In this document: piece after piece, positions 24,190 through 32,198 of the stretch
Position numbering within the stretch: the first letter of the stretch is position 1
How the letters are laid out: each line of letters starts with the position of its first letter
Virus genome (UHGV): UHGV-1377823
DNA length: 44,002 nucleotides
Strand: one strand, 5' to 3'
Source of the DNA: a virus
The notes under the pieces: generated by a model
The model's database searches: none
What the model was told of the DNA's origin: nothing
What the model saw: only the letters and a program-made list of their open reading frames with translations
Position numbers and translations under genes: made by a program

Positions 24190-25926
24190 ATGGCTTTCAG
24201 TTGGAGTGAGCTTAACTACCCGGCTGGCACAACCTCTGTACCCGTAGATATAGAGTACCTTGACAAGTCCTATATTTACGTGTACCTGGACGGTGTACTT
24301 ACTACGGACTACACCTGGAGCAGTGATACTGTTATTCAGTTTAACACTGCCCTGGCTGCTGCTACGGATGTACTGCTTGTACGCCGCACAGATAAAGAGT
24401 TCTTGTACATTATGTTCGCAGAGGGCGCTGCCTTTATCCGGGAGAACATTGATACTCAGAACAAGCAGTTCCTGCATCTTGCTCAGGAACTAACCGAGGG
24501 GCGCTCTATTGAGGGCTTCTACGGGGACTTGAGCATGAACGGGTTCCGCATCACCAATTTAGGCGCTGGGGTTAACCCTGGGGATGCAGTTAACAAGGGG
24601 CAGTTGGACGTAGTGGACCAGCGCGTAGTGAACCTGGAGCAGGCGTTTATTCAGGACACTACGAGTTATCCTTGGTACACTATTACTTCTACTGTAACAG
24701 ATACCCTGGACCCACCTTTCAACTTCACTAAAGCTGCGCTGTACATTAACGGCGTATGCCAGGTGCCTGGGTATAGTTATGAGGTTGTATCGAACCAGAT
24801 ACTACTGGCTGACCCTGTACCTATTGGCACCTTAATCTTCGCTCGTCTAGGTGAGGATGTTGGTACCGGGGACGAGTACGCTACGGCAGAGCAGTTAGCT
24901 GCTGCTATCAGTGCCGCCGAACTAGCGCACGTGCAGTTACAGAACAACATTGACCTAAAGCTAGACGCTACAGCTAACGCAGTATCAGCTACTAAGTTGC
25001 AGACTGCACGTACAGTGCAGACTAATTTAGCCAGTACTAGCCCATCTAGTTTCGACGGTACAGCTAATATCTCCCCCGGTGTTACAGGGATTCTGCCAAC
25101 CACTAACGGGGGCACGGGTAATGTCAACGGGACTGTAGCGGCATTAACTACTGCGCGTACCTTTCAGACAAACCTTGCCAGTACTAGCTCAGCTAGCTTT
25201 GATGGTTCCGCTAACGTAACTCCAGGGGTGACGGGTACTCTACCTATTGCTAACGGGGGCACAGGTAATACTACTGGGTTAGCTGCTACTGCTACGGCTC
25301 TCGCCACGGCCAGGACCTTCCAGACTAACTTAGCCAGCACTGCAAGCGCTAGCTTCAACGGCACTGCTAACGTTACGCCCGGCGTTACTGGTACACTGCC
25401 GTTGAGTAATGGGGGTACAGGGGGTACTACAGCAGTCTCTGCGCGTGATTCTCTAGGCGCTGCTGCATCTGGTAGTAACTCTGATATCACGGCCTTGACC
25501 GCGCTCACAGGCGGTATTACGGGGCTTGTTGGGGGTACTGCTGCTGCTGCTGGTGTAGTTGGGCAGATTCTGGAAGCCGTCAGCGGCTCCGCTGTAGCGT
25601 TAACTTCCGGAACCACTACTAACCTGACTAGCTTAGCGCTGCCTGCGGGTGAGTGGTTGGTTATGGGTAGCATCCGTATTGACAGTTCCGGGGGGAGTAT
25701 CACATCCCGAACCTTAGCTATTAATGACGTGTCCGCTACTACCCCAAGCGCTTGGTATCATGACTATATATCCCAAGCCAACACCGGGGCGGGGGTTAAC
25801 GTTTATGTCGTACCCCTTAGGTACTTTAGCTTGACAGGCACTACTACTCTCTACGCGGTAGCTAACGTCGAAGGTTCAGGGACTCTGACCGGACGGGGAT
25901 ACATTAGAGCGATACGTATACGTTAA
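24190..25926 (+). CDS. tail fibre protein with T7 gp17-like N-terminal tail-attachment domain
   Basis: N-terminal ~150 aa resemble T7 gp17 (DIEYLDKSYIYVYLDGVL...LLVRRTDKEF...). Central region has three tandem ~46-aa repeats; C-terminal domain is Gly/Thr-rich. Confidence 0.85.
   Translation: MAFSWSELNYPAGTTSVPVDIEYLDKSYIYVYLDGVLTTDYTWSSDTVIQFNTALAAATDVLLVRRTDKEFLYIMFAEGAAFIRENIDTQNKQFLHLAQELTEGRSIEGFYGDLSMNGFRITNLGAGVNPGDAVNKGQLDVVDQRVVNLEQAFIQDTTSYPWYTITSTVTDTLDPPFNFTKAALYINGVCQVPGYSYEVVSNQILLADPVPIGTLIFARLGEDVGTGDEYATAEQLAAAISAAELAHVQLQNNIDLKLDATANAVSATKLQTARTVQTNLASTSPSSFDGTANISPGVTGILPTTNGGTGNVNGTVAALTTARTFQTNLASTSSASFDGSANVTPGVTGTLPIANGGTGNTTGLAATATALATARTFQTNLASTASASFNGTANVTPGVTGTLPLSNGGTGGTTAVSARDSLGAAASGSNSDITALTALTGGITGLVGGTAAAAGVVGQILEAVSGSAVALTSGTTTNLTSLALPAGEWLVMGSIRIDSSGGSITSRTLAINDVSATTPSAWYHDYISQANTGAGVNVYVVPLRYFSLTGTTTLYAVANVEGSGTLTGRGYIRAIRIR
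25004..25430 (+). repeat. three tandem ~140-145 nt coding repeats inside tail fibre gene
   Basis: Repeat units start at 25004, 25149 and 25306 (TARTxQTNLASTSxxSFDGxANxxPGVTGxLPxxNGGTGN). Protein identity is ~80% but DNA identity is lower, through synonymous changes. They produce the spurious minus-strand ORF 25164-25703. Confidence 0.7.
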
Positions 25927-28924: not shown

Positions 28925-29450
28925 GATTATAGGTGCCCTTGCCGGGGCATCTCTCCTGGGCGGAGGCATCACCACCGTAATCCAGAACAATGAAGGGTAT
29001 AGTAGCACTGCTTATCGAGATAGCGCTGGAGTACCTACAATCTGCTACGGTGAGACCAAGGGCGTTCAGATGGGCCAGAAACGCTCTCTAAGCGATTGTC
29101 AGAAGCAATTGATACAGTCAGCAGGGGAACATGCCAAAGCGCTTGTAGGGCTTCCTGAGTCGATTCCTGACGTGGTTCTGCTGGGTAGCCTGGATATGGC
29201 TTATAACGTAGGTGTATCTGGGTTCTCAAATAGTGCAGTGAAGCGTAAGCTGGCACAAGCAGATTACCAGGCAGCAGGCCAAGCTGTGCTGCAATGGAAG
29301 TACATTACCCTGAACGGTAAGGAGTATGATTGCAGCATCAAAGGAAACAAGGTCTGCTATGGCTTGTGGAAGCGCAGGCTCTGGCAGAGCAAGGCAATTG
29401 GTAATGAATTTAAATCAGTGCAGGAAGCTGTAGCAGCCCTGCCAAAGTAA
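28908..29450 (+). CDS. SAR endolysin (T4-type lysozyme, GH24)
   Basis: N-terminal SAR-like segment IIGALAGASLLGGGITTVI followed by the catalytic triad E-8aa-D-5aa-T (EGYSSTAYRDSAGVPT). This is the architecture reported for the phiKMV, P1 and phage 21 SAR endolysins. Confidence 0.85.
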   Translation: MRLRNKIIGALAGASLLGGGITTVIQNNEGYSSTAYRDSAGVPTICYGETKGVQMGQKRSLSDCQKQLIQSAGEHAKALVGLPESIPDVVLLGSLDMAYNVGVSGFSNSAVKRKLAQADYQAAGQAVLQWKYITLNGKEYDCSIKGNKVCYGLWKRRLWQSKAIGNEFKSVQEAVAALPK

Positions 29451-29460
29451 GGAGCAAGTA

Positions 29461-31170
29461 ATGTCTTTAGTAGACTTAACAGTAGCACGGCACCCGGTTG
29501 TAGATACGGGTAGCCAGACGATTACTACGATAGCTGCCTTGCGCACTACCGAGCCTAGCTCAGATAGGCAACGTGTTACGCTTCTGGAGCATACCGCAGG
29601 AACCCGTAAAGGTGGTGGCCAGTTCCGCGCCGTTTTGGCAGGTTCGTCATACACCGACAATAATGGCACCGTCATTAAAACGCCAGGCGGCGCGGCATGG
29701 GTTCGTATAAACGCCGATATCGTGAACCCGTTGATGTTTGGAGCTTTAGGCGATGGAGCGACAAATGACAGTGTTGCACTTAACCGTGCGGGTACATATG
29801 CTACTCGTGTGATTGACCTGTTAGGGCTTACATATGGCGTAGGATCAACATGGTATTTAGAAGCTACAACCCCAAAAGTTGTTAAAAATGGGGGTTTAAA
29901 ATATCTAACAGCTCTGGGCACGGGGCCAATGATGCGTTATAAAAACGCGGCCCATGAGATGTATAATGTGGATTTTGACGGGGGCGGCAGCACTACATCC
30001 ACAGGGCTTATCTGGGAGGGTGGGAACGCCCTTCGCGGGGTTCGCGGCGGTGTAGTTCAGGACTGTAGTTTCCGCTACACAGGTGGTTCGGGTATTGCCG
30101 TTTCTTATGACGGAGCTAATAATACCGTTGGTTCCTTTGGTGTGATTAAAAGAGTTACCTTCAATCATTGTGGCCTTACTGGCGTGGGTAATGGCCGTTG
30201 TTGCCTTCTGCTGGACGGTGTTAGTAACTTCACGGTCTCGGACATTGTGGGTATAGACTGCAACTGGGGTATTTATGTCCGCAACGACTTTAATAATCCT
30301 TTATTGTCTCGTGCGACAAACAATACAATTTCCCGTGTCAATCTTAAAGGGCAGGGACTGAACAGCACGGCATATCCAGATGCTCAGGGTATTTCCTGTT
30401 CTTATCAGGATAACCTACAAATTACTGATGTTACAGTGGATGGCTTCCCAGGTAATGGTATTGATATGCAATACTGCGACGCGAGTATAGTCACGAACTG
30501 GAGAGCTACTGCTTGCGGTGATGGTGTCTTTATGGGTGACAGGGCGTGTCGTAGGCACACTATCAGCAATGGCATTGCTATTGACTGTAACCGCGCTATC
30601 CGTCTTATCACCGACGGCGGCTCCTTCATAATGAACTCTGTGGTGCCAGCTCTTGCGCATATTAAAATTACCAACGTTCATGCGTACAATTCCAGACGCC
30701 AGGCTTTTTACCTTGTTAACTCTGGTAGAGCCGCATATGGGTCTTCTATGACTAATGTGCAATTAGATAACTGCTCGGTGGACGGTACAGGGTCTCTCTC
30801 CCTAACCACTCATACGCATGGATTCCATATAGAGGGTGGCGTTAACGTAACGCTTATGAACTGTAACACCTTCAACATTCGGCAACACGGGGTCTATGTC
30901 AAAGATAGTGAGTTTGTCCGTATATTGGGCGGGGCGCACCAAAACGTAGACCAGGTTGGCGCTGGGAACCAGGGTGTTTATGTATCCTCCGATTGTAACC
31001 GCGTTAGCGTCTCTGATGTGTCTGTCTACGGTTTCGCTACTGCTGGTGCAGTTACTTTAGCTGGTGGGTCTGGACATTCAGCTAAACATATTCGCTGGCG
31101 TAGTATTGCCAGCGGCGTAACATCAAGTGGGGCTTCCTCCCCTTATCTGTTCGATAACCAGTCGTTCTAA
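29461..31170 (+). CDS. tailspike / capsule depolymerase (pectate-lyase-like right-handed beta-helix)
   Basis: FGALGDGATNDSVAL is typical of the pectate lyase/tailspike beta-helix superfamily. Repeated G-x-N/D beta-helix rungs follow. 569 aa, with no T7 gp17-like N-terminal anchor. Located after the lysis genes at the genome right end. Confidence 0.85.
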   Translation: MSLVDLTVARHPVVDTGSQTITTIAALRTTEPSSDRQRVTLLEHTAGTRKGGGQFRAVLAGSSYTDNNGTVIKTPGGAAWVRINADIVNPLMFGALGDGATNDSVALNRAGTYATRVIDLLGLTYGVGSTWYLEATTPKVVKNGGLKYLTALGTGPMMRYKNAAHEMYNVDFDGGGSTTSTGLIWEGGNALRGVRGGVVQDCSFRYTGGSGIAVSYDGANNTVGSFGVIKRVTFNHCGLTGVGNGRCCLLLDGVSNFTVSDIVGIDCNWGIYVRNDFNNPLLSRATNNTISRVNLKGQGLNSTAYPDAQGISCSYQDNLQITDVTVDGFPGNGIDMQYCDASIVTNWRATACGDGVFMGDRACRRHTISNGIAIDCNRAIRLITDGGSFIMNSVVPALAHIKITNVHAYNSRRQAFYLVNSGRAAYGSSMTNVQLDNCSVDGTGSLSLTTHTHGFHIEGGVNVTLMNCNTFNIRQHGVYVKDSEFVRILGGAHQNVDQVGAGNQGVYVSSDCNRVSVSDVSVYGFATAGAVTLAGGSGHSAKHIRWRSIASGVTSSGASSPYLFDNQSF

Positions 31171-31290
31171 CCAGAGCTTCTAACCAGTCGCTCTAAGGAT
31201 AGCCTTGGGGATAGCTTAGGGAGTGCTAGTAGGGGATGCTGGTGTATACTTGCTCCCTAAAAATATTATACTTACTAATTGGAGATATCT

Positions 31291-31740
31291 ATGAACGTTA
31301 AATATGATACAAACTCCGCCAGCGGTCTGACCTGGTTAACTGGTAGACGCGCTGGTGCTGTAGCAGGAACCCTGAACGCTAAGGGCTACTGGGTTGTGCA
31401 GATGCAAGGCAAGAAGATGCAAGTGCATCGTATTATCTGGGAGATGCTGAATGGGCCTATACCAGATGATAAAGTGATTGACCACATAAACCAGAACCCT
31501 GCTGATAACCGCATTGAGAACCTGCGCCTAGCCAGTGTCAGCGATAACAACTGCAATGCTAGACGTGATAGCCGAGAGTATCCTCGTGGGGTATACTATA
31601 CAGGTTCATGCTGGCGCGGAGAGTTCTGGAAGGATGGCAAGCGCTATATGCGAAAGCACAGCTCATACGAAGTAATCTGCCAGTGGGTTCTCAGTGAACG
31701 CGCTAGGCTTCACGGGGAGTTTATCCCTGAGCAGGTGTAA
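31291..31740 (+). CDS. HNH homing endonuclease (HNH_3 + AP2-like)
   Basis: IDHINQNPADNRIENLRLASVSDNNCNA matches the HNH_3 motif. It is a paralogue of the HNH at 40064-40534. ATG 31291 has a GGAGA SD 5 nt upstream. Embedded in the GATAGC repeat array. Confidence 0.8.
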   Translation: MNVKYDTNSASGLTWLTGRRAGAVAGTLNAKGYWVVQMQGKKMQVHRIIWEMLNGPIPDDKVIDHINQNPADNRIENLRLASVSDNNCNARRDSREYPRGVYYTGSCWRGEFWKDGKRYMRKHSSYEVICQWVLSERARLHGEFIPEQV

Positions 31741-31773
31741 ACCTGTTAGTCAAAAATGATATACTTGTGTCAG

Positions 31774-31864
31774 CCTCACCCTCACCCTCACCGCCCCTCG
31801 TTTCCCCCATAGGGGGTGCCTCAGCCAGAACTATGGCCTGGGTGGGGTGGGGGCCTGGGCCTGT
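31774..31864 (+). repeat. (CCTCAC)x3 - CCCCCATAGGGGG palindrome - G-tract run (GGTGGGGTGGGGGCCTGGGCCTG)
   Basis: Three tandem CCTCAC hexamers at 31774-31791. A perfect 5+3+5 palindrome at 31804-31816. A run of five G-tracts at 31836-31864. The C-rich to G-rich strand switch gives G-quadruplex potential on both strands. Confidence 0.6.
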
Positions 31865-32198
31865 TCAGGGATAGCCTGGGGCCTCTACGAGGCTCTGGGA
31901 GCTTCTCTAAGCGCTTCTACCGGATAGCCTATAGGATTGCATAGGGATAGCCCTGTGATAGCCTTAGCGTGGCTCTGGTTGGCTCTGAGTGATAGCTCTG
32001 AGTAGCTCTGTGTGGTAGCGGAGGTGGGCGCAGGCTTACCTCTTTTCGTCCTCTATGTGTGCCTAGAGATAGCTTAGGGATAGCTGTAGAATCCTCACGT
32101 ACAGGCCGGAGATAGCTATTGGATAGCTCCAGTGTTAGCCGGTAATGGGTATAGCTAGAAGCTAGAGGTTGCATGATAAGGTATGCTGACTGTATGCA

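Follow-up and report, generated by a model that had tools for sequence, protein, structure and literature searches.

A beta-helix tailspike predicted to dock on the tail fibre as second receptor-binding protein of a Koutsourovirus-like Enterobacter phage

Introduction

How does a tailspike that has no tail anchor of its own become part of a virion whose tail fibre carries one? The question is raised by the gene at 29461-31170 of the virus genome UHGV-1377823, of which the whole stretch of 44,002 nucleotides (nt) was analysed and is called the window here. An earlier note on this DNA had taken the gene to encode a second, indirectly docked receptor-binding protein (RBP) that targets capsule, in an arrangement characteristic of Klebsiella podoviruses of the KP34 type. 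We consider it probable that the spike is the second RBP (RBP2) of a Koutsourovirus-like podophage of the Enterobacter cloacae complex, that it is docked on the tail fibre through a peptide, that it cleaves polysaccharide and that its gene is an exchangeable cassette. The window does encode two receptor-binding proteins, the fibre at 24190-25926 and the spike at 29461-31170, and among these two the gp17-type N-terminal anchor is on the fibre only, Pfam PF03906 being found in the fibre and not in the spike; on both counts the earlier description stands.

Results

The spike gene and its parts are as follows.

29461-31170, plus strand: spike gene; second receptor-binding protein, a 569-amino-acid (aa) beta-helix tailspike and predicted glycan depolymerase
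29449-29454, plus strand: ribosome-binding site AAGGAG, 6 nt 5' of the spike ATG, where it overlaps the stop codon of the endolysin (direct sequence reading)
29461-29508, plus strand: predicted docking ("conserved") peptide, residues 1-16 (MSLVDLTVARHPVVDT), a variant of the KP34-type MALxxLV heptapeptide
29527-29715, plus strand: beta module before the helix, residues ~23-85 (CBA120 TSP2 D3'-type; Pfam PF27114 Phage_tail_beta), from phmmer and a precomputed PF27114 match
29716-31167, plus strand: beta-helix body, residues ~86-569, receptor-binding and presumed catalytic domain

The gene is an unbroken open reading frame (ORF) of 569 codons on the plus strand with an ATG start. A protein identical to its product (P0001) appears among the gene calls of independent assemblies of its sample (human gut metagenome run ERR1190733). 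A spurious ORF was ruled out by the ribosome-binding site, 189 homologues and a high-confidence fold. Megablast of the spike against 50,697 phage records gave no match, protein-level searches alone being informative, and a scan for sigma-70 promoters and terminators around the gene gave weak consensus matches only, which were not used.

The 9.5 kb 5' of the spike, from the internal virion protein to the endolysin, show 84-87% nucleotide identity to the Enterobacter phages Entb_48, phiKDA1, SDFMU_EhYP (EhYP), SDFMU_Pec (Pec) and Salmonella phage KKP 3828, and these best matches cover 77-92% of the query. The genus-assigned members among the best backbone matches are Koutsourovirus, in the Slopekvirinae, whereas Klebsiella phages give patchy identity of ~70-75% over 16-19% of the same query, in the terminase region only (~74%). 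Judged by nucleotide identity, the phage is a Koutsourovirus-like (phiKDA1-type, Slopekvirinae) Enterobacter podophage outside Drulisvirus, and its placement among Klebsiella KP34-type phages in the earlier note is contradicted. Almost every named spike homologue comes from a member of the Enterobacter cloacae complex (kobei, hormaechei, soli, cloacae), which makes an Enterobacter the very probable host.

Pfam Beta_helix (PF13229) matches spike residues 249-423 (E 4.8e-11). A monomer model built with AlphaFold2 (AF2) from an alignment of 63 homologues is almost all beta, with a mean predicted local distance difference test score (pLDDT) of 92.1 and a predicted template modelling score (pTM) of 0.89; pLDDT falls below 50 in residues 1-16 only, beta structure starts at about residue 19 and a short capping helix lies near residue 90. 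Foldseek comparison of the model with the PDB placed CBA120 TSP2 at the top (E ~1e-13), followed by K1 lyase, Acinetobacter and cyanophage tailspikes, WceF and AlgE epimerases. The Pfam match, the model and the tailspike matches together bear out the pectate-lyase-fold tailspike that had been proposed, and at the level of the predicted structure a pectate-lyase-like right-handed parallel beta-helix is confirmed. The N-terminal module of the spike aligns in phmmer with TSP2 residues 269-352 (E 9e-29), to which spike residues 23-107 are ~60% identical; this segment comprises the D3' module, defined as TSP2 residues 270-328 (PMC7506556), and the start of the helix. The PF27114 match was precomputed on a protein identical to the spike. 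Further along, D335 shows no variation among the 63 homologues, D354 and D360 are conserved in 98%, and N288, Q309, N332, R378 and R381, on successive rungs, are conserved in the spike family as well. Judged by conservation, all of these are candidate active-site or ligand residues.

That the upstream part of related proteins is missing from the spike was first hinted at by the PHROG matches, which cover no more than residues 21-130 and align with the interior of much longer tail-fibre or depolymerase families. A PF03906 search of residues 1-140 gave no match even at E<=10, and BLASTP of the spike against its own fibre gave E 0.36. Profile-profile comparison (hhalign) of the spike family with the fibre family returned a single weak match (probability 19%, E 0.0012), wholly within N-terminal extension columns of longer homologues, where the window spike is gapped. 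Because the helix cap motif begins at residue 89, the spike has no room for a 150-aa adaptor. A cryptic gp17 adaptor was ruled out on these grounds: the PF03906 null, the BLASTP value, the gapped columns and the position of the cap. The earlier statement that the spike lacks the adaptor is thus right for the gp17 anchor and wrong if taken to mean an adaptor-less protein, the chain beginning with a predicted docking peptide (MSLVDLTVARHPVVDT) followed by the D3'-type module. The weak hhalign match pairs the gp17-type fibre anchor with the epsilon15-type extension at the N-terminus of spike homologues and hints that these two kinds of virion anchor are distantly related.

The predicted docking partner is the first receptor-binding protein.

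24190-25926, plus strand: 578-aa tail fibre with a T7 gp17-type anchor (residues ~1-150), a branching/docking beta domain and a distal fibre with three ~50-aa repeats
24661-24855, plus strand: branching/docking beta domain of the fibre, residues ~158-222

The fibre matches PF03906 with E 5.4e-15. Its residues 1-232 are 53% identical to KP34 gp49, the T4gp10-like fragment included, and residues 1-239 match HRP29 gp44 (PDB 8es4_G, E 2e-105); further matches are PhiM1 gp47 (PDB 8vbx, E 1.5e-62) and 23sh_r ("tail fiber gp9"). PDB 23sh holds a KP34-like "tail fiber gp9" and a "tail spike gp1" in one entry, each of them homologous to a window protein. In the literature HRP29 gp44 is called a tailspike adapter, purified as a gp44/gp52 complex, and in PhiM1 six trimeric full-length gp47 fibres "adapt trimers of spike protein" (PMC11440229). 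In engineered KP32, where K11- and KP34-derived parts were tried in the KP32 scaffold, the branching domain was required, as was the conserved peptide, and RBP2 was no longer incorporated when the first RBP (RBP1) was deprived of its branching domain (PMC13352976). Indirect docking as the earlier note envisaged it, with the fibre as the partner, is the best-supported model, its support coming from homology (HRP29 gp44/gp52, PhiM1, 23sh) and from the KP32-scaffold engineering.

We infer that the spike forms a beta-helix tailspike, presumably a trimer, without a tail anchor of its own. Its first ~16 residues would be a flexible docking peptide that plugs into the beta-jellyroll "branching" domain (residues ~158-222) following the gp17-type anchor of the fibre, and one fibre and one spike would stand at each of the six tail vertices. 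It is improbable that the spike bypasses the fibre and is held directly by the tail (nozzle or head-tail adaptor) or by another virion protein: the docking interface is absent from the HRP29 and PhiM1 models and the conserved peptide is very short, as such attachment would allow, but the N-terminal half of the fibre is homologous to described tailspike adapters, the KP32 result ties RBP2 incorporation to RBP1's branching domain, and all relatives conserve the branching segment but vary in the distal fibre.

The peptide itself speaks for docking on the fibre. The spike starts with MSLVDLT, in which M1, L3 and L6 agree with the MALxxLV heptapeptide described in KP34-type second RBPs (PMC6872550); KP34 gp57 begins MALTKLV, and the K2-2 tailspike aligns with the window spike from residue 3 (LVDLV...). 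Entb_48 and a further homologue (P0065) each have 14 of the 16 N-terminal residues in common with the window spike, for an overall identity of only 47% (Entb_48) and 35% (P0065), and the same 16 residues are exactly the part left disordered by AF2. A motif survey used the endolysin as bait to retrieve 46 IMG/VR loci, 38 of which have, beginning 12-21 nt past the endolysin, a gene for 150 aa or more; with three GenBank relatives and the window this made 42 proteins, which fall into 22 clusters with unrelated bodies. The start M[AS]L occurs in 16 of the 22 clusters and the fuller M[AS]Lxx[LIV][VIT] in 14. By this comparison MSLVDLT is a recognisable variant of the KP34-type heptapeptide and not an exact match.

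The survey also bears on whether the spike belongs to the virion at all. It is very improbable that it is instead a soluble enzyme released at lysis, freeing progeny or stripping biofilm, or a non-catalytic adhesin, even though beta-helix proteins can be binders only, a point that weighs against our reading and is taken up with others below. That 14 of the 22 spikes, unrelated otherwise, have the N-terminal peptide speaks for a role in assembly; other phages have the same spike module joined to genuine virion anchors; and invariant or near-invariant polar and acidic residues run along successive rungs.

The gene also behaves as a replaceable unit. DNA homology of 88-90% to phiKDA1, EhYP and Pec ends at 29452-29460, at the spike ATG, and returns at ~31731, whereas 76% homology to Entb_48 extends over 29346-29771, through the peptide and the D3' module, breaks, and returns at 31141. 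The breakpoints differ between relatives and define two exchange units, one nested in the other: the entire gene past its first few codons, and the helix body by itself. Spike residues 23-569 are 87% identical over 547 residues to a 773-aa Enterobacter kobei protein (P0002), whose first 222 residues show 76-78% identity to the N-termini of the epsilon15 and TL-2011b tailspikes. The same module stands behind other adaptors: the P22 Head_binding domain (P0013), TSP1/gp66 Tail_spike_N (P0009), and a T7 gp17 anchor with Tail_spike_N (P0046). Eight Enterobacter phage records of ~40 kb (e.g. EcpYZU01 and IME278) and a 5-kb "Enterococcus phage IME_EF3" fragment carry a 35%-identical version, called "tail fibre" where annotated. 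The G+C content at third codon positions is 0.44 in the spike body and 0.50-0.58 in neighbouring genes, which is compatible with import and weak evidence on its own. We suggest that the gene is a replaceable cassette of which the first few codons and the flanks alone are retained between related phages, and that the body would have been exchanged with the spike of an epsilon15-like E. kobei prophage. The break in DNA homology at the spike and the 22 unrelated bodies at this locus support the proposal that the position beside the homing endonuclease and repeat region is a hot spot for exchange.

The P0002 locus (E. kobei contig L057, 8001-11452) is an epsilon15-like prophage with a divergent Acyl_transf_3 gene alongside the spike and a holin/endolysin cassette downstream; a SIR2_2 and DUF87 gene pair after the locus is possibly a defence system. 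PQ520381.1 and MN871475.1 were also among the matches: the 5140-bp "Enterococcus phage IME_EF3" encodes an Enterobacter T7-like tail fibre that is 34.5% identical to the spike, and "Pseudomonas phage Pa-sanjiao" looks like a Kuttervirus. The host labels of both are probably wrong.

As to substrate, the beta-helix would bind and cleave a host surface polysaccharide, with the Asp cluster D335/D354/D360 as candidate catalytic site, and this cleavage would bring the virion to the outer membrane. Between the two obvious targets we lean towards O-antigen. The closest module lies on the epsilon15-type E. kobei prophage spike adjoining the Acyl_transf_3 gene, and a spike beside an acyltransferase gene is an arrangement typical of O-antigen-modifying temperate phages. 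Versions of the module with a P22-type head-binding domain occur. Specificity for O-antigen has been described as likely for Uetakevirus RBPs, and the target of PAS7, a Slopekvirinae phage, is the O103 O-antigen (PMC11522302); TSP2, the closest solved relative of the N-terminal module, cleaves the O157 O-antigen (PMC7506556). In the earlier note the spike was instead taken to degrade capsule (K-antigen or exopolysaccharide) and to determine host range by capsular type, as is the case in Klebsiella KP34-type phages. We find such targeting rather doubtful, because the spike does not resemble KP34 gp57 in sequence (E 0.62), because its closest modules are on epsilon15-like and P22-like Enterobacter prophage spikes, classes usually targeting O-antigen, and because of the acyltransferase and TSP2 precedents just given; fold similarity does not tell substrates apart. 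A literature search on Koutsourovirus, IME278 and EcpYZU01 found no receptor data.

Several points weigh against the reading of a fibre-docked, O-antigen-cleaving spike, besides the purely binding beta-helices already mentioned. The HRP29 gp44 (8es4_G) and PhiM1 gp47 (8vbx_R) chains are modelled over ~130-135 residues only, so the branching domain and the spike contact are not visible in 8es4 and 8vbx; HRP29 gp52 is not among the deposited chains, and the 2026 entry 23sh may be the first to show the contact between branching domain and spike. MSLVDLT departs from MALxxLV at positions 2 (S) and 7 (T), and T at position 7 was put into the survey pattern to admit the window's own cluster: S2 occurs in 3 of the 22 clusters and T7 in the window cluster only, with V at position 8. 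The call between O-antigen and capsule rests on context and not on chemistry, and Enterobacter strains do make capsules (PMC9041515).

Two further features lie between the spike and the end of the genome.

31291-31740, plus strand: HNH homing endonuclease between the spike and the terminal repeat (Pfam HNH_3, E 1.2e-19; PHROG 99)
31780-32051, plus strand: sequence equivalent to the phiKDA1 direct terminal repeat (blastn to phiKDA1 nt 1-284, where the left direct terminal repeat is nt 1-267; 84%)

The window equals contig k127_30134 of ERR1190733 (44129 bp) minus its 127-nt k-mer terminal overlap and is therefore a circularised, hence permuted, phage genome, in which a direct terminal repeat of ~270 bp has collapsed to a single copy. 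The right end of phiKDA1 aligns to window 31735-32033, and from the terminal-repeat alignments the physical right end lies just past the HNH gene. The gene order is fibre (24190-25926), terS, terL, a 62-aa ORF, spanin, a holin-like ORF, endolysin, spike and HNH. Once permutation is allowed for, the spike is indeed at the far right end, as had been claimed, with only the inserted HNH gene between it and the terminal-repeat equivalent. The HNH gene is an insertion relative to Entb_48, whose post-spike sequence aligns with the window at 31207-31275 (nt 58-125) and at 31731-31976 (nt 88-334); the overlap of these matches means that ~38 nt are duplicated on the two sides of HNH. phiKDA1 instead carries an HNH gene in the gap separating internal virion protein and fibre; the corresponding position in the window (24187/24190) is empty.

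Short repeats accompany this region. Three tandem 13-nt units (TAACCAGNNGNTC) occupy 31155-31203, from the last spike codons past the stop, exactly where homology to Entb_48 returns (31141). Twelve plus-strand copies of GATAGC lie at 31198-32127, around the terminal-repeat equivalent, one of them (31567) within HNH; counted on both strands, the motif occurs 49 times in the window, where 30.5 +/- 5.5 would be expected. The cluster may consist of short repeats for packaging or replication, like the arrays flanking the T7 terminal repeat.

In the distal fibre, residues ~273-415 (~25006-25434) hold three ~50-aa repeats of the form ARTFQTNLASTSxxSFDGxANVTPGVTGTLPxxNGGTG, which Tandem Repeats Finder did not detect at the DNA level. 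An 858-aa protein shows 70% identity over 26% of the fibre and has among its Pfam matches PF12571, which we take to be a tail-fibre repeat family. The distal half is common to Entb_48 (91% nucleotide identity), and phiKDA1, EhYP, Pec and KKP 3828 have a different, shorter one. Since it differs among relatives, the fibre tip is a second variable host-range module.

Discussion

The nearest described system is KP34 (Drulisvirus, Slopekvirinae; gp49 and gp57; PMC6872550, PMC13352976), in which fibre, terminase, lysis genes, spike and terminal repeat follow in the same order. KP34 likewise has an RBP1 with a PF03906 anchor and a T4gp10-like branching domain, an RBP2 at the right end beyond the terminase and lysis genes, a beta-helix spike starting M-[A/S]-L-x-x-L, and a spike locus that is a variable cassette. 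It differs in genus and host, the present phage being a Koutsourovirus-like phage of Enterobacter, and its gp57 lacks sequence similarity to the window spike. KP34 gp49 is a 307-aa stub, whereas RBP1 here is full-length at 578 aa with a repeat-bearing distal half, as in PhiM1 and the "group B" KP34viruses; here, moreover, the peptide that starts MSLVDLT is conserved over ~16 residues within the subgroup, and an HNH gene follows the spike. Of the KP34-type arrangement claimed in the earlier note, the gene order and the anchor-branch architecture thus hold, and the Klebsiella/Drulisvirus affiliation does not.

Closer in backbone are phiKDA1 (NC_027980), with its gp62, and Entb_48 (PV067696), with its last gene, which share the backbone (84-87% nucleotide identity), the locus and the N-terminal start (MALV...) and have no HNH gene at the post-spike position. 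Entb_48 also has the 16-residue peptide and a D3'-type module, with a body only 47% identical, whereas phiKDA1 gp62 (460 aa) is unrelated to the window spike past the first four residues. The phiKDA1 record already annotates at this locus a "tail spike protein" similar to a CBA120 tailspike. Shigella phage HRP29 (Buco; gp44/gp52) and Pectobacterium phage PhiM1 (gp47/gp39) have, as PDB 8es4 and 8vbx, a closely homologous fibre N-terminus with a separate spike trimer on it. PhiM1 keeps a full-length fibre like the window phage and HRP29 gp44 is truncated (260 aa); the spikes of both are Sf6/P22-like, with a different start (MAAVSSL in HRP29 gp52).

Two further proteins resemble parts of the spike. 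CBA120 TSP2 (ORF211; PDB 5w6p, 6w4q), which shares the D3' module and the helix start, is an O-antigen glycosidase that forms a trimer and has an Asp pair between subunits. It differs in having XD2/XD3 and the D1 head upstream and D4 downstream; the helix bodies are only ~20% identical, and the catalytic residues of TSP2 cannot be mapped onto the window spike from sequence. The spike P0002 of the E. kobei epsilon15-like (Uetakevirus-type) temperate prophage starts with an epsilon15-type virion anchor of 230 aa where the window spike has its 22-residue N-terminus. Because of their 87% identity over residues 23-569, P0002 and the window spike very probably have the same glycan specificity.

The architecture is that of the KP34-type anchor-branch system in a sister genus; the mode has been described before and is not a discovery, and knowledge of how such spikes work is unchanged. 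We tentatively propose, as a step beyond this, that the body was acquired recently from an E. kobei epsilon15-like prophage behind a tag of 16-22 residues, and that this tag, not just the heptapeptide already published, would be a sufficient portable label for the XD-type domain of the fibre, even on a full-length, tip-bearing fibre. If so, the phage would use two independent receptors, one through the fibre tip and one through an O-antigen spike, and the tag would be usable for loading arbitrary trimeric spikes onto Enterobacter phages.

The locus provides a clean Enterobacter example of the anchor-branch and conserved-peptide design of Klebsiella phages and extends that design to Koutsourovirus. 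It also defines the boundaries of exchange, from the ATG to about codon 22 upstream and at the stop codon downstream, which are needed for re-targeting phages of the Enterobacter cloacae complex. Finally, the E. kobei prophage spike, being 87% identical, is a pointer to the probable type of host glycan and could help to match this uncultured gut phage to its host.

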